Shown one piece after another: positions 1,723 to 64,000 of a stretch of 64,000 nucleotides of DNA; position 1 is the stretch's first letter; every line of letters starts with the position of its first letter. The position numbers and the translations under genes were made by a program. This DNA comes from a virus (taxonomy: Duplodnaviria; Caudoviricetes). The DNA lies in the IMG/VR virus record IMGVR_UViG_2881871051_000001, positions 27,638-91,637 of that record, one strand, 5' to 3'. The notes beneath the pieces were generated by a model. That model was not told the origin of the DNA and did no database searches. It saw only the letters and a list, made by a program, of their open reading frames with translations.

Positions 1723-3993
1723 TTGACGCAGTTGCTAACAGAAGAGTTTATCGCGAAATATCCGGAGTTTCCGGCGGAAATGAATGCGCTCGGCCAATTC
1801 GTGTACATGCGGACATATTCGCGGTTTCTGGCGGATAAAGGGCGGCGTGAAACGTGGAAAGAGACCGTCCGCCGGGCAGCGGAATATAACGTCCAGCTTG
1901 GCGTTAAGCATACGGAGAATATCGGCTATCCGGTTGATTACGAGTGGCACCGTAAGGAGGCGGAGTTGCTATTCGACAATATGTTCCATTTGCGCCAATT
2001 CTTAAGCGGACGGACACTGTGGGTCGGCGGAGCGGAGGGCGGAGTTGCCGAGAAGTATCCGCTGGCTAACTTCAATTGCAGCTTTATCAACATCCGATCG
2101 TGGGCGGACCTTGGTGATTTGTTCTATCTGTTGCTCGTTGGTACCGGCGTCGGATTCAAGATTACGAAGAAATTTGCGGCCGAACTCGCGCCTATCCGGA
2201 CGAACACAACGTTGCTCCATTCGGAATACGAACCGGTTCCGAAGGCCGCGCGGTATGAGCGGACACAACTTCGGGATATGGCAAACGGGTACGCGAAGAT
2301 TTACGTAGGCGATAGCAAAGAGGGCTGGGTCGAGTCACTACGCCAATACCTCGACATCCTTACGCAGCCAGCGTATGAGCATATTCATACCGTTAAGATT
2401 TCGTATAACTCCGTACGCCCCAACGGTGAGCGCTTGAACACTTTCGGGGGCACGGCATCGGGCCACGTTCCTCTCCGCGAAATGTTCGACGGAATCGACC
2501 GCGTATTGAAGAACCGGATTGAACCCGGACTCGCTCCGTTAGGAGACGTTCTTACGTGCTATCATGACGACGAAACGGATGACTGCGGAAACCCTACCGG
2601 GTACCAACGTGTGCGCCCGATACACATTCTCGATATCGCAAACCTTATCGGAGCTAACGTAGTTGTCGGAGGCGTGCGTCGGACAGCGGAAATTGCGCTA
2701 TTCGACGCGGACGATTACGAGTGTATCTTCGCCAAGTACGGACTTAACGGTATATGGGACGCAGATAAACACGCCGCCGTTATCGCGAAAACGCGAGCGC
2801 TAGGCCTTGCGGAACAGGCGCAATTTCTCGAAACACTTCCGCTGTTTAATCCGGATGCCCGTCCGCTGCATCACCGCCGTATGTCGAACAACTCGATCGC
2901 ATTTGAATCGCAGCCATCGCGCGAATTTCTGAACCTGATATTCACGATGATGCAGGCGGAAGGCGAACCGGGATTCGTCAATCTCGAAGAGGCGCGCAGA
3001 CGGCGTCCGAACGCGGAAGGTTTAAACCCATGCGCCGAGATCCTGCTGGACTCGTACGGAGTCTGCAATTTGACCACCGTTAATATGACCGCATTTGTTA
3101 ACGCTGATAGTACGCTCGATCGCGAAGGCATAACGGAAGCCCAACGCTTATCCGCGCGCTGCGGTATGCGTATGACGCTCGCAATGTTGGAGATTCCGCA
3201 TTGGAACGATGTTCAGCAGCGCGATCGCCTCCTCGGTACGTCGCTAACCGGCGTAAAGGACGCTCTCGCACGGTTGAACTACGTTGAGACGCAAGAACAG
3301 GCGCTACTCTACGAACTCGGCGTCGCTGCGCGGACGGAAGCGGACGCCTACGCCAAACAACTCCGCGTGTCATCGCCATTACTCGTCACAACGGTTAAGC
3401 CGGAGGGTACGATATCGCAAGTTGCTGGCGGAGTTTCTAGCGGTCTTCACTGGTCGCACTCACCGTATTATATCCGCCGTATCCGTATCAACGCCGCTGA
3501 TCCGCTGGCCCGCGCGGTTATCGATCTCGGATGGACGGTTAATCCCGAAGTGGGAACGCCGGGCAATACGCACGACGAGCGCATGGCTAACGCCCGGACG
3601 TACGTCATCGACTTCCCGATCGCATCTGGCGCAACTGAAACGAAGGATGACGTATCCGCAGCGCGTCAACTCGATACGTATTTCCGATTCCAGCGGTATT
3701 ATACGGAGCATAATTCGTCGAATACGATTACGGTCCGGCCGCAGGAATGGGCGGAAGTCGAGCGTATTGTATACGAAAAGTGGGACGAATTTACAGCGGT
3801 ATCCTTCCTCGCGTTGGGTGGCGGAACCTACCAGCTCGCACCGTATGAGGCGATCTCTCAGGCGGAGTACGAGCGGATGGCTGCTGATATGGCTCCGTTT
3901 GACCCTGCGATTCTGCAACGTTACGAGAGCGGCGTAGGCAGCGATTTAGACGGCGCTGATGGATGCGAGGGAGGAGTATGTCCCATCCGGTGA
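1723..3993 (+). CDS. nrdJ: Class II (AdoCbl-dependent) ribonucleotide reductase
   Basis: FNCSF, GGVRRTA, GEPG, NPCAEI, TVKPEGT and C-terminal CEGGVCPIR motifs. Confidence 0.93.
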
Positions 3994-41752: not shown

Positions 41753-41831
41753 GCCGGTGTGGCGGAATGGCAGACGCGCGCGACTCAAAATCGTGAGGGA
41801 AACCGTGGAGGTTCGAGTCCTCTCACCGGCA
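41753..41831 (+). tRNA. tRNA-Leu(CAA); CCA not encoded (ends ACTA)
   Basis: Acceptor GCCGGTG/CACCGGC, anticodon loop CTCAAAA, variable arm, GGTTCGAGTCC. Confidence 0.95.
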
Positions 41832-41881
41832 CTAACAAAGCAGATTTGTAAAATTGCCTTGTGCAGTTTTATGAATCTGTT

Positions 41882-57353: not shown

Positions 57354-57540
57354 TGATTTTTAAGTCCTCCTTTTATTGGGGTTAACAACAAATCTGAAGG
57401 GTACTAAGCATGTTCTTGTTTTATGCTCGTGTATTCAATCGCGGCTTGATATAATAGAAGAAACTTGAAATCGGTTCGTGAAAAGAAACGTCTTATTCGA
57501 TTGGAAGAGTCAAGGACAGTTGAAGCTTGGAGGGGATGAT

Positions 57541-58800
57541 ATGTCGGATGGCTCCCATAAGCAATACCTGCTCATGCACAAGCACGTCCCTGTAGCCGAC
57601 ATTGAGCTAGATGAAGCAACCTGCTCGATTTCTGCCATTGGGCATGTTTATCATGAGCAGCATGCTCCTGTAGGAATACCGGTGAAACGGGGGCGGATCG
57701 ACCGCGCTGCCTTGAACGAATGGTGGAGAAGCCGCGCTATTCCCGCCAGCCGTGACGGGATTAAAGAAGCTTTGCTGGAGCTCAATCTCTCCACTACCCA
57801 AAAGCTGCTGGATAAGAGCTTGGGGCTGAGCTTATCTGACCAGTATTGGATTTGTCCCTCCGGCTCAGATGTAAACTGGTCCAAGGTGAATTTTTTTGAC
57901 AATCCTTTTTCTGATGATGTGGGAAATGTGCTGTTCGGCAAAGGCTCATCCAGCGAACGGATCAGCCTGATGTCGCCGGATAATACTTCTGACGGCTGGC
58001 TGAAAAAAAAGTGGGCGATCCTGGAAGGAAAGCGCTGCTTGATCAAAGGTGGAAGCGGGGCGACTCAACAGGAGCCTTATAACGAGGTGCTGGCTAGCAG
58101 GATCATGGAGCGGCTCGACATTCCCCATGTTCCCTATTCGCTATTGCTTCAGGACGACTATCCGTACAGCGTGTGCGAGAACTTCATCACCCCCCAAACT
58201 GAACTGGTTACGGCTTGGTATGTGATGCGGACGCAGACAAAGCCCAATCATGTCTCGATTTACCAGCATTATGTGAACTGTTGTAAGGCGCTAGGGATTC
58301 CCGGCATCGTTGATGCGCTTGATCGAATGATTGTCGTGGACTATCTCATTGCCAATGAGGATCGGCACCAAAACAATTTCGGCGTCGTTCGGAATGCGGA
58401 AACCTTGGAATGGCTCGGGCCTGCGCCCATTTATGACAGCGGCTCCTCCCTGTGGTTCTCCAAGCCGCTGGGGTTGATTTCCCCCACCGCCAAGCTGACC
58501 TGCAAGCCGTTCAAGCAGGATCACGAGGAGCAGCTTAAGCTGGTGACCAATGTGGACTGGCTCGATTTGGCGGCGCTGCAAGGCATAGACGAGGAGCTTC
58601 GAGAAATAGGGCGGGGCTCACTCTTTATGGATGCGTCCCGGTGCGACGCTCTGTGTACGGCCCTGTTGAAACGCATCGAGTTGTTGGCTGAGTTTATCCG
58701 TTCTCGAAGCTCCACGTTTTGGAGGGATGAACACAGTGCCGACGTAGCAGAAGATATTGCTTACAGCGGCATGCAGTCTGAGGAGGACTGGGAGCGATAA
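57541..58800 (+). CDS. HipA-like kinase domain protein
   Basis: DGWLKKKW, LIKG, NEVLAS, NEDRHQNN, APIYDSG. Confidence 0.8.
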   Translation: MSDGSHKQYLLMHKHVPVADIELDEATCSISAIGHVYHEQHAPVGIPVKRGRIDRAALNEWWRSRAIPASRDGIKEALLELNLSTTQKLLDKSLGLSLSDQYWICPSGSDVNWSKVNFFDNPFSDDVGNVLFGKGSSSERISLMSPDNTSDGWLKKKWAILEGKRCLIKGGSGATQQEPYNEVLASRIMERLDIPHVPYSLLLQDDYPYSVCENFITPQTELVTAWYVMRTQTKPNHVSIYQHYVNCCKALGIPGIVDALDRMIVVDYLIANEDRHQNNFGVVRNAETLEWLGPAPIYDSGSSLWFSKPLGLISPTAKLTCKPFKQDHEEQLKLVTNVDWLDLAALQGIDEELREIGRGSLFMDASRCDALCTALLKRIELLAEFIRSRSSTFWRDEHSADVAEDIAYSGMQSEEDWER

Positions 58801-59073: not shown

Positions 59074-59910
59074 TTACCCGGCCTTGGCCAGCTTGCGGGC
59101 CATGCCTACCAGCTTGACGCTGTGATACACGTTTTGTACCACGCCTCCGCCTCCCCCTGTGGTCAGCACAAAGTCGGCCAAAAAGCGCGGCGTCCGAATG
59201 GCCAGCATCATGCAGGCTAAGCCCCAAAACATATGGTTTTGCAGCATCAGCCCCACGCCCAACTTGGCTAAAGCGATTTGAATCACCACCGCCAACATGG
59301 ATTGCAGGAACTTTTGGGCATAGGCCCGGAAGACGCCTCGGTCGTTATCCAAAAGTCCGGCACAGGCCAAGGGAATGCCTACGCGCAAGATGAACATTTC
59401 CAATCCTCGCATGAGGAACTGAAAATACAGAATGAAAAAACAGACGATGAAGATCAGGCCAAACACAGCAGTCACCAATCCGGCGGATTCTAAAGCGTTC
59501 ATCCATGTTTGCCAGTTATAATTGATGGATTCACCGATGACGGAGAGCAACCGGTTTGTTAAATCCTCTACCATCAGCCCCAGCCAGGTATAAATGGTTG
59601 GAAAGCAAATCGCTACCGCCATCGCCCGAAAAAAGTTGGTCAGGAGAAACAGCGGCTCCTCATCCGGATCACCGTCGGTCCACAGTACGTAGATTTCAAA
59701 CCCCTTTTTCAAAAACTTCAAAATCATCCAGGCGACGCCGAAGGAAAACACGATCTCATACAGGTTCTCCAGCAAGTTTGCACCAGTGGATAGGGTCATG
59801 TATTTTTCCGCATACAAGGAAATCGGTACAATATCCTTCAGCAAGCTGTTCAGGTAAACCAACGAGCCATTTAGCAGCGCAATAATCAGTACAAGCAAAA
59901 TTTTCTCCAA
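59074..59910 (-). CDS. VirB6/TrbL-like conjugation membrane protein
   Basis: Multi-TM, RGLEMFILRVGIPLA. Confidence 0.7.
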   Translation of the reverse strand: MEKILLVLIIALLNGSLVYLNSLLKDIVPISLYAEKYMTLSTGANLLENLYEIVFSFGVAWMILKFLKKGFEIYVLWTDGDPDEEPLFLLTNFFRAMAVAICFPTIYTWLGLMVEDLTNRLLSVIGESINYNWQTWMNALESAGLVTAVFGLIFIVCFFILYFQFLMRGLEMFILRVGIPLACAGLLDNDRGVFRAYAQKFLQSMLAVVIQIALAKLGVGLMLQNHMFWGLACMMLAIRTPRFLADFVLTTGGGGGVVQNVYHSVKLVGMARKLAKAG

Positions 59911-59974
59911 AACACGCCTCTCCTTTCTGCGGAAAGCAGTGCTTGGACCGCTTCCCACTGAAGGCTTTTCGCTC

Positions 59975-60205
59975 TTACCTCCGGTAATTGAACATTTCCC
60001 TGATCCGTTCCGTAAGTGTAGGCAGAATGGTGCCGCTGAACAGCAGGTACAGTCCGCCAAGCAGCAGAGCTCCGATGACCACCGCCATCAAAATCTTCAC
60101 GGCGCTATCCACGAAGCCTTCCCCGCGGCGGTTGTTCAGCGCCAATTTTGCGGTTCTTGTCGCTTGCAATGCTTTTTCCTTAAGTGATTTCAGTCCTTTT
60201 TTCAT
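59975..60205 (-). CDS. Flp-like prepilin
   Basis: Basic leader, RGEGFVD, hydrophobic helix. Confidence 0.6.
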   Translation of the reverse strand: MKKGLKSLKEKALQATRTAKLALNNRRGEGFVDSAVKILMAVVIGALLLGGLYLLFSGTILPTLTERIREMFNYRR

Positions 60206-60265
60206 GTTCAATCCCTCCTGATTGGTTTGGAAATAAAAAAGAGCCAGTTGATGAGCAAGCCTGGC

Positions 60266-60356
60266 TTACTTGTAGTACCCGATGATGATATTGAGTGTAG
60301 CCGAACCGAGCACTGCCCCGATGCAGGAAACAATGGCGACAATAATTCGATTATTC
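60266..60356 (-). CDS. VirB2/TrbC-like pilin, exon 2
   Basis: Joins exon 1 in frame: KK-W-NNRIIVAIVSCIGAVLGS...YYK*. Confidence 0.75.
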
Positions 60357-62867
60357 ACGAGGTAAGCACATCAAAGTGTACTCCCTCCCAAACCGGACGT
60401 ACCTCTCTCAAGGTATCCGGCTCTCCATTTGTCATGCCTTAACAGATTTGCTTTTGTGTATGTTTTTATGACAGTCACTACAGACGGCAAGGGTCTTTCT
60501 GCGCTTCTCGCGCATAAGGGCTTCCCAGTGGCTATGGCCGGTCAAATCCTTCAAGCGTTTCACCTGATGGATTTCAATTGCTTCGCCGACTTTCCCGCAT
60601 AGTTCGCAGCATTTCCTCCGTATTCTGGCGGCAAGGCTGGCGGGTCTGTCGTACCGCCTAAATATGGGCAGCACGTTCAAGTCGGCAAATGCCTGTTTTT
60701 CTTTTCTGCCATAGCCCTGATTGTAGAATGTACGTTGCTTTACCCCTGACTTCGTTAGATATTCGACAGTGAAGGCGCCATTTTTGACATACTTTGTCTT
60801 AATGACCTTAACCTTCGTGGTGTACTTCCCCGCAAAGGTTTTGCACATGCTGTGATACATCAGGCCCCCGAATTTCCCTATTACAGAAGCGTTGTTCGCT
60901 ATGCAGTAATAGTTGTAGAGGCCGCGTACCTCGCTGTTGTACGCCTGCAAAATCGAAATATCCTCCTTGTTGATGAGCGCGCTGCGATGAATCGCTTTAT
61001 ACCGTTCGTTGCCCGCCTTGTCCTTGGATACCTGAATCGCGCCAAGCGCTTTCAGCTTGGAAGCCCATTTTTCATGCGGAACATACAGCCGCACCTGACG
61101 GTCGTACATCCGTTTTCTCACGCCATTTTTGTCTTTTGCAATAGCTTGACTTCGCGAAACCGTGATGTCATAGGATAAAAACCGCGCAAAGTCGCTGGTG
61201 TGAGTGATTTTGGTCTTTTCTACGGAAAGAGTGAGTTTCAATTTTTCAGACAGGAACTTGCGTATATCCTCCTTGATCTCTTCTGCATCCGCCTTGCTTC
61301 CGATCATGCCGATAATGAAGTCATCGGCGTATCTTATATATTGCAGACGCTTGTAGCCCTTATCCGATGAAACCTGCGGATTCACCGTCAGTTTCGTCGT
61401 GGTAAGGCTTTTGAGAGCTTTGGCATGTTCCTTTCGTTCCGTCTCTGTCATGCTGTCCCATGATTTACCGATTTTTTGCTTAAACCGTCTTGCCTGATTG
61501 TCCAGCCTGATATATTCGGGGTTGCGCTTCATCTTCATTCCCGTATCAAACTGGCGCTTGTATTCGTCCATATAGCTGTCAAGCTCATTCAGGTAGATGT
61601 TCGCAAGGATTGGACTGCATCCGGAACCCTGTGGGGTGCCGGAATAGGTCACATGGTATCTCCATTGCTCCATATATCCCGCTTTCAGGAATTTCCACAT
61701 CAGCGCAATAAACGCCTCATCGTCAATTCGCCTGCGGAGAATCTCAATCAGCACATGGTGGTCAAAGCTGTCAAAGCAAGCCTGGATGTCGCCCTCGATA
61801 AACCACTTCGCGCCTGTGAATTTCGCTTGTAAATCCGAAAGCGCAGTATGACAGCTCCGGTTAGGCCGGAAGCCGTGGGAGTTGTCTGAAAACGTAGGCT
61901 CGTAGATGCTTTCCAGTATCATTTTGACGACTTCCTGCAACAGTTTGTCGTCAGCGGACGGTATCCCCAGCGGGCGCTGTTTGTTACTATTCTTCTTTGC
62001 GATATAAGTGCGCCGCGCCGGTTTGGGCTGGTAACTGTGATCTTTCAGCGATTCTATCAACTTTTCGATTCGCTTTTCGCTCAACCCGTCGATTGTAGTG
62101 CCGTCTACCCCCGTCGTCATGCTGCCGTCGTTGGAATAAATCCGCTGATAGGCAAGCATATAGAAGTCAGGGTTGTACAGATTCCTGTAAAGGCGCTGGA
62201 ACCTGTAGCTGGGATCTTTCGCTTTTTCCGTTAAGGTTTTTAACACTTCAATCGGAATTCTCATCGTGCCTCCGCACCTTCCTTTCTTTGTGTCAAAAGA
62301 CAAACTGCCTCCCTTCGCATAGCGGCTCCGGCCGCATTGTGGACGGCTTTCCCGTCCTCAAACTACTACGGAGGCTCTGTTGCCATGCCCGACACTGCCG
62401 GGTTTAGGCAATCCCCGTTTAGGTCTGCCAAGATGAGCGTTCTGTGTTGTCGGATAAGACTTTCGCCGTTTACCGCTTCTCGCGGTCGCCCAATTACGAG
62501 TATCACGCGGCTGTACAAAATGGAAATACAACCGCCGTAATTCCATGCGTTTCATCTCTTTTCGCATGATGGGTGTCCATATCCCTAAGCTCCGGCTATC
62601 GTTTACGCAGTGTAGCATTTATCCTCATACACAGATTTTCATTCCCACATACCGCGTTTTATGAAGAGCTTTATGATACGCCGTATGCCTGTTCCGCTTG
62701 GGAACAACGACATGCTACACTCCCCTTCAGGTTTCCCATCCAAGTAAGTCGTGGAATGACAGGGCGCGATGACTCCTCGCGTGATACTTTCACCTGCCGC
62801 TTGCTCAAGGCGGAATTTCGGCAAACCCGCGTATGCGTATCGATTTTACGCATACTTACGGGCGCAG
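60357..62867 (-). mobile_element. Group II intron (IIA, Ll.LtrB-like)
   Basis: Domain V GAGCCGGATACCTTGAGAGAGGTACGTCCGGTTT, DVI with bulged A, EBS1 loop at 62517-62525. Confidence 0.92.
60432..62264 (-). CDS. ltrA: Intron-encoded reverse transcriptase/maturase with C-terminal En-like domain
   Basis: RPLGIP, GFRP, PQG, YADD, CELC...CSDCH. Confidence 0.95.
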   Translation of the reverse strand: MRIPIEVLKTLTEKAKDPSYRFQRLYRNLYNPDFYMLAYQRIYSNDGSMTTGVDGTTIDGLSEKRIEKLIESLKDHSYQPKPARRTYIAKKNSNKQRPLGIPSADDKLLQEVVKMILESIYEPTFSDNSHGFRPNRSCHTALSDLQAKFTGAKWFIEGDIQACFDSFDHHVLIEILRRRIDDEAFIALMWKFLKAGYMEQWRYHVTYSGTPQGSGCSPILANIYLNELDSYMDEYKRQFDTGMKMKRNPEYIRLDNQARRFKQKIGKSWDSMTETERKEHAKALKSLTTTKLTVNPQVSSDKGYKRLQYIRYADDFIIGMIGSKADAEEIKEDIRKFLSEKLKLTLSVEKTKITHTSDFARFLSYDITVSRSQAIAKDKNGVRKRMYDRQVRLYVPHEKWASKLKALGAIQVSKDKAGNERYKAIHRSALINKEDISILQAYNSEVRGLYNYYCIANNASVIGKFGGLMYHSMCKTFAGKYTTKVKVIKTKYVKNGAFTVEYLTKSGVKQRTFYNQGYGRKEKQAFADLNVLPIFRRYDRPASLAARIRRKCCELCGKVGEAIEIHQVKRLKDLTGHSHWEALMREKRRKTLAVCSDCHKNIHKSKSVKA

Positions 62868-63136
62868 CATTTTTTGGTATCCATTTCATCGGCGGCGGAA
62901 CGGCGAATGCAGAAATAGATGATGAGCAGGCCGGACACGATGGGAGCCAGGATCATCAGCCAGGTGGTCACATCCCCGATCAGCTTTTCCGTTCCCGTTA
63001 CCAGCTTACTGTCCTTGATGTCTCCTGCGGCGAAGGCGGACGGGGAAGTTAGAATGTTCCAGCAAAGCGTCACAGCCATCGCCGCTACAAAACGAAGTTT
63101 TGGATGAAGCGTGGGCAACCGGTTGAATTTTCTTAC
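62868..63136 (-). CDS. VirB2/TrbC-like pilin, exon 1 (start uncertain)
   Basis: Signal peptide SAFA, DSKLVTGTEKLI, TM, ends MDTKK. Confidence 0.7.
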
Positions 63137-64000
63137 TCGTCCGGCATCGGGGGCATGCCCATGCCCTTGGCTGCTGCCGCTTGCTGCTGTTCGGCCAGTT
63201 GTCGGGCAATGTCCTTTTGGTAATACACCCAAATGTTCCACAGTTTCACCTCCTCTCTCGTGTCGGTACGGATGGGCCGCTTGCGCTCCCGTTCTTCCCG
63301 CACCTGGCGGTTATGCTCCTTGTCGCCTAAACCCATCATCTGGTTAAAGGCCCATTCGCTAAGATCGGGAGAAAACATCATGGCGGGATGACTGCGGGAG
63401 AGGACAATCTGATAGGGCCGGGACACTCGCCGTACTTCATCTACGGTCAGCAGCTTGCGCTCCAGCAGATTAAGGGAATGAGAGGTGCTTGGTGTGGAAT
63501 ATTTGCCGTGGGAGGCCGAAAGCTGGTAGCTGGAGGTGGTGTACGTTCCCAGCTTTTCGCTGATTTCGCGCAGCGTCTCCAGGTCGTCGGCCTGGAGATA
63601 AATCCAGGTTTGGCAGTTAGATTTGATGATACTGGCGGCGTGATCGTCGTATTTTTCCTTCAATTGCTCGAAGCTCTGTACAAACAGGTTGAAACGCATG
63701 CCCCGCCCGCCGCCAACGGTGAGCTTGTTGGTAAAGTCGGCAATGGGCGTGAAGTTGCCAAACTCATCCAGCATGAAATTCACCCGCCGCTTCAAGCGCC
63801 CACCGCGTTTGTCCGCCTCGGCCGTGAGCAACTCATAGAGTTGGGATACCATGAGGGAGGCTACCGGATAGAACGTAGTTTTTTCGTCCGGCAAAATGAT
63901 AAAAAGTGCCTGCTTCCGCTCACCAAGACTGGCAACCTGGATTCCCGGGAACTCATAACGAGGATGGTGGATCGATTCCCAAACTGGTATAGATCTCCTT
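63133..64000 (-). CDS. virD4: VirD4/TraG coupling protein, C-terminal part (5' part uncertain)
   Basis: FMLDEFGN, VQSFEQL, SNC, LLTVDEV. Confidence 0.88.
   Translation of the reverse strand, partial: RRSIPVWESIHHPRYEFPGIQVASLGERKQALFIILPDEKTTFYPVASLMVSQLYELLTAEADKRGGRLKRRVNFMLDEFGNFTPIADFTNKLTVGGGRGMRFNLFVQSFEQLKEKYDDHAASIIKSNCQTWIYLQADDLETLREISEKLGTYTTSSYQLSASHGKYSTPSTSHSLNLLERKLLTVDEVRRVSRPYQIVLSRSHPAMMFSPDLSEWAFNQMMGLGDKEHNRQVREERERKRPIRTDTREEVKLWNIWVYYQKDIARQLAEQQQAAAAKGMGMPPMPDE

Follow-up and report, generated by a model that had tools for sequence, protein, structure and literature searches.

A 2511-nt group II intron related to Ll.LtrB interrupts a predicted VirB2-like pilin gene of a conjugative element and starts with C and ends with GU, instead of the near-universal G...AY. 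In related introns the first and penultimate bases change together, so that nature seems to have run the compensation experiment itself. The intron lies on the minus strand (62867 to 60357) of the analysed window, a 64,000-nt stretch of viral DNA, and splits the Trp codon (TG|G) of the pilin gene, which is located between TraG/VirD4 and DUF6133/TrbL genes. The observation made in the initial annotation was confirmed: the intron, its exact ends, the loop containing EBS1 and delta, and the pilin host gene all hold.

Structure and boundaries of the intron

The features identified in the window are as follows.

62868..63079 (-): exon 1 of the pilin gene, ending with TG of the Trp codon; the start codon is uncertain (ATG at 63079, or GTG at 63073 as in the database protein P0001).
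62868..62873 (-): IBS1 (AAAAUG), the last 6 nt of exon 1, complementary to the CAUUUU part of the loop.
62875..62879 (-): candidate IBS2 (UACCA, exon positions -12 to -8), inferred from 3 of 5 bp with the candidate EBS2; relatives give 4 of 5 and 5 of 5 with their own exons.
60357..62867 (-): group II intron, 2511 nt, 5' CUGCGCCCGUAAG ... CUUACCUCGU 3'.
62867..62867 (-): intron nucleotide 1, C; it is G in 144 of 149 relatives.
62575..62579 (-): candidate EBS2 (UGGAC) in a domain 1 hairpin loop, its position inferred from relatives whose loop matches their own IBS2.
62517..62525 (-): delta (UUC) plus EBS1 (CAUUUU), forming a 9-nt hairpin loop.
62378..62378 (-): gamma (A) in J2/3, pairing with the last intron base U.
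60432..62264 (-): intron-encoded protein, 610 aa (RT, maturase X, HNH endonuclease).
60390..60423 (-): domain 5.
60363..60363 (-): putative bulged branch-point A in domain 6, 7 nt from the 3' end.
60357..60358 (-): penultimate G (60358) and last U (60357, gamma').
60266..60356 (-): exon 2 of the pilin gene, consisting of G of the Trp codon, 29 further codons, and the stop codon; delta' (GAA) lies at 60354-60356.

The Rfam model RF00029 (domains 5-6) matched 60425..60357(-) over its full length at 54.2 bits, against a gathering score of 40, and the match ends exactly at 60357. Domain 5 contains the catalytic AGC and a two-base bulge and is followed by domain 6. In domain 6, the A of CUU[A]CCUCGU lies at -7, within the 7-8 nt from the 3' end usual for the branch point. 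The same register holds in the intron relatives from genome contigs that were compared, and the branch point was read from the sequence and the family consensus GGAGGGAG...CUU[A]CCUC. Of 14 pairs in domain 5, six show compensatory changes among relatives. The open frame at 62264..60432(-) carries RVT_1, Intron_maturas2, and an AI2M-like HNH domain in Pfam, and its best relative of solved structure is LtrA (5g2x, E 8e-152, residues 18-605). Together with the position of delta directly 5' of EBS1, a rule which relatives also follow, these features assign the intron to the IIA, mitochondria-like class. In contrast, the terminal consensus sequences are departed from at both ends. Positions 2-5 of CUGCG fit GUGYG but position 1 does not, and at the 3' end the last base fits Y but the penultimate base is G rather than A.

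The junction was fixed by three lines of evidence. Removal of 60357-62867 joins ...ACC AAA AAA TG to G AAT AAT and gives a full pilin-like protein, which aligned end to end with 59 of 59 intronless homologues, all reading KKWN. Among all 191 family proteins retrieved, 185 read KKW, one reads KKR, three are intron-bearing truncations (KKC + CARK...), and two have other truncations. The junction cannot slide, because moving it by one base either way gives L or C in place of W; the first base of the intron (C) differs from that of exon 2 (G), and its last base (U) differs from that of exon 1 (G). Intronless DNA alleles read AAATGGAA: loci L162, L167, L168, and L169 read AA(A/G)AAATGG uninterrupted, continuing with AAT in L162 and L169, ACT in L167, and CAG in L168. 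In addition, UUCCAUUUU (62517-62525, minus strand), complementary to AAAAUG|GAA, occurs once in the intron, whereas simple arithmetic gives about 0.01 expected occurrences on one strand of 2.5 kb. It forms the 9-nt loop of a hairpin (MFE -18.4 kcal/mol, z -4.16, 0 of 200 shuffles as good), and the loop covaries with the exon across the family. The ligated exons are therefore predicted to read AAAAAATG|GAATAAT, with AAAAAATGGAATAAT across the junction of the spliced message.

As for the host gene, exon 1 alone, covering only positions 7-51 of the 80-position profile NF045849 (Mbov_0395 family pilin-like conjugal transfer protein), scored 22.9 bits against a cut-off of 40, and the intronless homologues P0003 and P0007 scored 55.8 and 56.1. 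The unspliced frame stops 7 codons into the intron and loses the last 30 residues. It follows from the sequence that, as the initial annotation claimed, pilin production depends on splicing, and DNA transfer presumably does as well.

Terminal bases in related introns

Two diverged relatives occupy the same codon in pilins only 44-52% identical. L002 (77% intron-protein identity) reads UUGCG...CGC and L081 (78%) reads UUGCG...CAC. A fourth allele, P0122, is inferred from a protein with the KKC + CARKCA tail. None of the 191 retrieved family proteins has a KKW + CARK tail, the signature of a G1 intron at this site. The three sequenced members, including the present intron (L001), form one clade with SH-aLRT support of 100.

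Pyrimidine starts were also found outside this clade. L204 reads U1...AU in a phage major tail protein gene; its T|GG junction is supported by an intronless homologue, although its boundaries can slide by one U without changing the mRNA. L206 reads C1...GU in a helicase gene. Its empty-site allele, L215, has 630/636 and 1073/1079 identical flanking bases (99%), the boundaries of L206 cannot slide, and the L206 loop CC|UACCUC pairs with GAGGUG|GG. In a quick tree, branches with SH-aLRT of 95 or more force three origins of the pyrimidine start.

Of 149 introns with both ends visible, all 144 that start with G have A at the penultimate position. The five that start with a pyrimidine are C-G (L001 and L206), U-G (L002), and U-A (L081 and L204), and no C-A or G-G combination was seen. 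The gamma column is A with a last U in 137 loci and G with a last C in L002 and L081, where the gamma-gamma' pair shows a compensated change from A-U to G-C, and the pair changed from G-C to A-U in L206 relative to L212 and L213. Ribozyme position 77 was considered as a possible third partner, since it is A in 100 of 102 unique G1 ribozymes, G in L001, and U in L002 and L081. However, L204 (U1) keeps A there, and thus no link is claimed.

There are signs of activity. All 140 introns from the genome and metagenome scans whose two ends were seen keep an open protein frame of at least 604 aa, and the dN/dS of the intron protein between L002 and L081 is 0.098. The L002 and L081 introns are 88-95% identical in DNA, while the flanking pilin-gene exons are 63% identical, implying movement between alleles. 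A search of sequencing runs found no RNA run holding the sequence and only two DNA runs holding small shares of it. A scan of viral contigs for more members with the pattern ATGYTGCGCCCGTAAG gave 27 hits, of which 26 showed no domain-5-like motif in the 3 kb downstream and one (L195) showed such a motif but had no Rfam group II match; these were treated as chance or unrelated coding sequence. In plasmids, the intron gave only distant RT-region matches of at most 34% coverage, and exon 1 DNA gave no match. Literature searches for natural introns starting with a pyrimidine, or for first/penultimate compensation, found no such report in the library searched, supplements excluded.

Interpretation of the proposed terminal pair

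We consider it most likely (probability roughly 0.6) that this is an intact, mobile intron in which a Y1:R(n-1) pair, here C1 with G, naturally replaces the G1-A contact. In this view, exon recognition is of the usual IIA type, with EBS1 pairing with IBS1, delta UUC with GAA of exon 2, and gamma A with the last U, and only the terminal pair differs. In other group II introns G1 contacts the penultimate A, a contact needed for the second splicing step. The replacement would have arisen at least three times in this intron family, and the combinations C-G, U-G, and U-A are those expected of a Watson-Crick or wobble pair evolving through a wobble intermediate (G/A to U/A to U/G to C/G). The penultimate base is predicted to contact the first base after lariat formation, and in RmInt1, which has G1, a G or U at the penultimate position damaged the second step most (PMC4238363). 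The initial annotation had interpreted the intron as a natural compensated variant, and the comparative data support this interpretation. The analysis itself establishes the boundaries, the comparative pattern, and the signs of selection, whereas accurate splicing, branching at the putative A, the pairing of the two bases, and the action of the pair in the second step are inferred. There are only five sequences in three lineages, so the absence of C-A may be due to chance; L002 and L081 share ancestry, and U1 with A is also what a single uncompensated G1-to-U change would look like. In addition, the canonical G1-A contact is described as non-Watson-Crick, and thus a Watson-Crick replacement is not obviously isosteric.

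A possible but less likely alternative is that the introns are active without pairing, a pyrimidine at position 1 being simply tolerated, for example because the maturase assists, and the penultimate purine drifting freely between A and G once G1 is lost. The occurrence of U1 with both A and G and the small number of independent lineages are consistent with this idea (see also the title of Peebles et al.). However, both independent C1 introns have G at the penultimate position, drift should also yield penultimate pyrimidines, which are absent from the five, and penultimate G never occurs in the 144 introns starting with G. It is very unlikely that the copy in the window is a decaying, non-splicing intron that has inactivated the pilin gene, its odd ends being damage, even though both consensus ends are broken, no RNA run containing the sequence was found, and only one copy lies in the window. 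The intron-protein frame, domain 5, the branch A, gamma-gamma', and the EBS1/delta loop are all intact, and the same kind of ends persists across relatives with 72-76% nucleotide identity to this copy (IEP and 5' ribozyme), two of which (L002 and L081) give the low dN/dS above. Moreover, the empty site of L206 implies a recent precise gain or loss of an independent C1...GU intron.

Misplaced boundaries, with the intron actually starting at the preceding G, are the least likely explanation. A G does lie immediately upstream of C1 in L001 and L206 and of U1 in L002 and L081, and shifted 5' splice sites are known in C.te.I1 (PMC4024640). Nevertheless, a one-base shift gives Leu or Ser in place of a Trp found in 185 of 186 full-length homologues and breaks the delta pairing and one EBS1 pair, and the empty site of L206 defines the inserted DNA without ambiguity.

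A bolder possibility, about as likely as not, is that a pyrimidine at position 1 pairing by Watson-Crick or wobble geometry with a penultimate purine fully substitutes for the G1-A contact in both splicing and retromobility. It would have arisen repeatedly and would be the ribozyme counterpart of AT-AC spliceosomal introns, implying that the second-step active site reads the presence of a pair rather than the identity of G1. As far as we could trace, the known contact rests on mutagenesis of one yeast intron and on structures of canonical introns. The present introns form a natural allelic series (G/A, U/A, U/G, and C/G) in one closely related family, one member having a matched empty site. 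This makes it testable whether the contact is a true pair, what geometry it tolerates, and whether it matters for reverse splicing as well as for exon ligation. In practice, boundary finders that insist on GUGYG...AY will mis-annotate such introns and the genes they split; here the pilin is called as a 75-aa stub (P0001).

Comparison with known systems

Among the closest known systems is Ll.LtrB of Lactococcus lactis, a IIA intron in the relaxase gene ltrB of a conjugative element. The intron protein is a full-length relative of LtrA, delta lies directly upstream of EBS1 and pairs with the 3' exon, and both introns sit in a conjugation gene, so that transfer should depend on splicing. The host gene here is a pilin and not a relaxase gene, and the ends are C...GU instead of G...AC. 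RmInt1 of Sinorhizobium meliloti, with the natural 3' end CC, is also a natural departure from AY at the penultimate position, with consequences for the second step (PMC4238363); in the present intron, position 1 is a pyrimidine and the penultimate base is a purine.

The first:penultimate interaction defined by mutagenesis of yeast ai5-gamma (Chanfreau & Jacquier 1993, as cited in PMC4238363 and PMC3669008) involves the same two positions and the same proposed role in the second step. Those were laboratory mutants, among which a C1/G(n-1) pair, as the initial annotation stated, is reported to have been compensatory, whereas the present introns are natural lineages. AT-AC spliceosomal introns likewise show alternative terminal bases that change together at the two ends, and the present series sharpens this parallel, but they involve the first and last bases of nuclear introns removed by the spliceosome and not a self-splicing ribozyme. 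C.te.I1 of Clostridium tetani is a bacterial group II intron with a non-standard 5' junction set by EBS1-IBS1 (PMC4024640). In C.te.I1 the GUGYG motif is intact and only the site moves, 8 nt upstream, whereas here the site is in register and the first base itself has changed.

Intron boundaries and exon recognition

The feature lies on the minus strand. In the Rfam search, the group II model (domains 5-6) matched at 54.2 bits against a gathering score of 40, and the match ends exactly at position 60357. The intron and its surroundings, including two other features of the window, are as follows.

63133-63999 (-), a TraG/VirD4 coupling protein gene
60357-62867 (-), the group II intron
62517-62525 (-), the exon-binding loop of the intron
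62264-60432 (-), a 610-aa frame carrying RVT_1, Intron_maturas2, and an AI2M-like HNH domain
60425-60357 (-), the Rfam domain 5-6 match
59975-60211 (-), a DUF6133 protein gene
59074-60060 (-), a TrbL_4 protein gene
57478-58800 (+), a 440-aa frame next to the transfer genes, on the opposite strand, with a HipA-like C-terminal kinase domain (31.4 bits against a cut-off of 30.5)
41753-41832 (+), a tRNA-Leu(CAA) gene, a possible integration site or boundary of the conjugative element

The best solved relative of the 610-aa protein is LtrA of Ll.LtrB (E 8e-152 over nearly the full length). The interrupted gene appears to belong to NCBIfam NF045849, the Mbov_0395 family of pilin-like conjugal transfer proteins: exon 1 covers profile positions 7-51 of 80, and intronless homologues score 55.8 and 56.1 bits against a cut-off of 40. 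The Pfam models T4SS_pilin and TrbC/VirB2 matched those homologues only below threshold. A sub-threshold match to Rfam LOOT RNA (RF03000, 30.8 bits against a gathering score of 46.4) falls on domains 2-3 of the intron (62321-62410, minus strand), raising the possibility that the LOOT motif resembles, or derives from, this part of group II introns.

Removal of 60357-62867 gives a protein that aligns end to end with 59 of 59 intronless homologues, all of which read DEMDxKKWN at the junction. Among the 191 family proteins retrieved, 185 read KKW and one reads KKR; three are truncated and read KKC followed by CARK, which is the translation of the first bases of the intron, and the other two are truncated a few codons earlier. 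Moving the junction by one base in either direction gives Leu or Cys. In addition, the junction cannot slide, because the first intron base (C) differs from the first base of exon 2 (G) and the last intron base (U) differs from the last base of exon 1 (G). Intronless DNA alleles from other genomes (L162, L167, L168, and L169) read AA(A/G)AAATGG without interruption, continuing with AAT in L162 and L169, with ACT in L167, and with CAG in L168. The intron therefore reads 5' CUGCGCCCGUAAG ... CUUACCUCGU 3'. The observation in the initial annotation, that an intron starting with C and ending with GU splits a conjugative pilin gene, is thus confirmed.

The sequence UUCCAUUUU (62517-62525) occurs once in the intron and is the 9-nt loop of a stable hairpin (z -4.16, with none of 200 shuffles as good). 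It is the exact complement of AAAAUG|GAA, that is, EBS1 plus a three-base delta directly upstream, which is the IIA arrangement. Across the family this loop changes with the target; for example, UCGCAGUU goes with exons ending AACUGC|GA, which validates the assignment. A candidate EBS2 loop, which we regard as an inference, pairs with exon positions -12 to -8 at 3 of 5 positions in the window, and at 4 of 5 and 5 of 5 in the related introns L002 and L081, respectively, and the bases differ between introns in step with their exons.

The same short stretch of the pilin gene looks like a hot spot. Some homologous pilin genes (locus L171, about 1370-1400; proteins P0106 and P0142) are cut 7 nt upstream of this site, after DEMD(Q/T), and the inserted sequence starts GUGCAGCGACAC, giving protein tails SAATRCC or SATRS. 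This is probably a second, unrelated intron family. At another locus, L172 (about 1500-1700), a pilin homologue is cut short after its first hydrophobic segment (one TGA in the match) and runs straight into a DUF6133-like gene; it looks like a degraded copy.

Terminal bases in related introns

Scans of genome and metagenome contigs with the intron protein gave 160 loci, of which L001 is the window's own record. Both ends are visible in 140 of these loci, whereas the other 20 run off a contig or into N. Among the 140, 136 read GUGCG...AU, one (L111) reads GUGCG...AC, and three start with a pyrimidine: the window (C1...GU), L002 (U1...GC), and L081 (U1...AC). All three sit in the same Trp codon of pilin genes that are only 44-52% identical in protein, and in silico splicing restores a full pilin in each. 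They form one clade with SH-aLRT support of 100 and the topology (L001,(L002,L081)), nested among introns that start with G. A fourth allele, the protein P0122, has a pilin 90% identical to that of the window over the scored stretch (residues 34-75 of P0001, the database protein for this record) but carries the L002-type tail CARKCA.

Scans of viral contigs added nine further introns with both ends visible, of which seven are canonical and two, L204 and L206, start with a pyrimidine. L204 reads UUGCGUCCG...CUCAU and lies in a phage major tail protein gene. Its T|GG junction gives YRYVWLLKGKFSEP, which matches the intronless protein of a Bacillus phage (FVWLLKGKFSVP), and an alternative start at a G breaks the alignment. 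The boundaries can slide by one U without changing the mRNA, but the first base is U either way. L206 reads CUGCGCCCA...GCCUGU and lies in motif I of a helicase-related gene, and its loop CC|UACCUC pairs with GAGGUG|GG. A plasmid record, L215, is the empty site for L206 and reads GACCACGAGGTG|GGCGGCGGAAAG, with 630 of 636 and 1073 of 1079 flanking bases identical and ungapped. The end bases differ from the neighbouring exon bases, so that the inserted DNA is exactly CTGCG...CCTGT. The nearest relatives of L206, L212 and L213, read GUGCG...CCUAC. A further locus, L200, has two group II domain 5-6 matches on one strand (208-295 and 3048-3115), about 2.8 kb apart, and the 3' end of one intron lies about 300 nt upstream of the 5' end of the next.

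In a tree of 56 intron proteins, obtained by a quick search, the pyrimidine-start label needs three changes, forced by branches with SH-aLRT support of 95 or more. L204 groups with L203, L205, and L209 (support 99), and L206 groups with L212 and L213 (support 100).

In total, 149 introns have both ends visible. All 144 that start with G have A at the penultimate position. The five that start with a pyrimidine are C-G (L001 and L206, independent of each other), U-G (L002), and U-A (L081 and L204, also independent). G at the penultimate position occurs only with a pyrimidine at position 1, C1 occurs only with G, and no C-A or G-G combination was found among these introns. Ignoring relatedness, the chance that all three penultimate-G sequences fall among the five pyrimidine starts is 10/540,274; counted as lineages the evidence is thinner, with two or three events. 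All states lie on a path that never breaks a Watson-Crick or wobble pair (G/A, U/A, U/G, C/G). We also examined ribozyme position 77 (window position 62791), which lies in a conserved single-stranded stretch, GGU-N-AAAGUAUC. It is A in 100 of 102 unique G1 relatives, with gaps in the other two, G in the window (C1), and U in L002 and L081 (U1). L204 (U1) keeps A, however, and thus no link to position 1 is claimed.

Indirect evidence for activity of the introns

All 140 introns from the genome and metagenome scans whose two ends were seen keep an open protein frame of at least 604 aa, and L204 and L206 keep frames of 635 and 602 aa, respectively. The L081 protein appears to start with TTG where L001 and L002 have ATG, because of a 2-nt difference just upstream (about 1195-1203 of L081). 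The dN/dS between L002 and L081 is 0.098; against L001, dS is saturated and dN is 0.15. The J2/3 base that pairs with the last intron base is A with U in 137 loci and G with C in L002 and L081, and it switches from G-C in L212 and L213 to A-U in L206. Only L111, the only canonical relative of the genome and metagenome set ending AC, is mismatched: it keeps A at gamma (A with C), which may be a recent change or a metagenome assembly variant. Two domain 5 pairs differ by double changes between L001 and L002, and 6 of 14 domain 5 pairs show such changes among nine relatives.

The L002 and L081 introns are 88-95% identical in DNA, while their flanking exons are 63% identical. The intron has therefore moved between diverged pilin alleles while carrying U1. 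The 99%-identical filled and empty pair, L206 and L215, implies a recent precise gain or loss of a C1...GU intron. No RNA run was found to contain the sequence of the window, and the splicing of these introns is accordingly an inference from DNA and protein comparisons.

Inferred terminal contact and comparison with known introns

The intron possesses every defining feature of a IIA group II intron that we tested except the two consensus end bases. The initial annotation interpreted it as a natural compensated variant, and this interpretation is supported, and strengthened by the independent recurrences and the empty site. The boundaries and the pattern of the end bases are direct results of the analysis, whereas splicing itself and the contact between the two end bases are inferred. 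The penultimate base is predicted to make a non-Watson-Crick contact with the first base after lariat formation, and this contact affects the second step (PMC4238363 and PMC3669008, both citing Chanfreau & Jacquier 1993). We infer that in the lineages described here the contact is made by a pyrimidine-purine pair, which may or may not have Watson-Crick geometry. The initial annotation also referred to a C1/G(n-1) combination that reportedly rescued splicing in yeast. In RmInt1, which has G1 and a natural penultimate C, changing that base to G or U damaged the second step most (PMC4238363).

The unspliced frame of the pilin gene reads KKCCARKYA and then stops, losing the last 30 residues, which align with the hydrophobic C-terminal segment of the family. 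This truncated form is what the protein database contains for this record (P0001, 75 aa). Pilin production should therefore depend on splicing, as the initial annotation had proposed. The same holds for the relaxase interrupted by Ll.LtrB.
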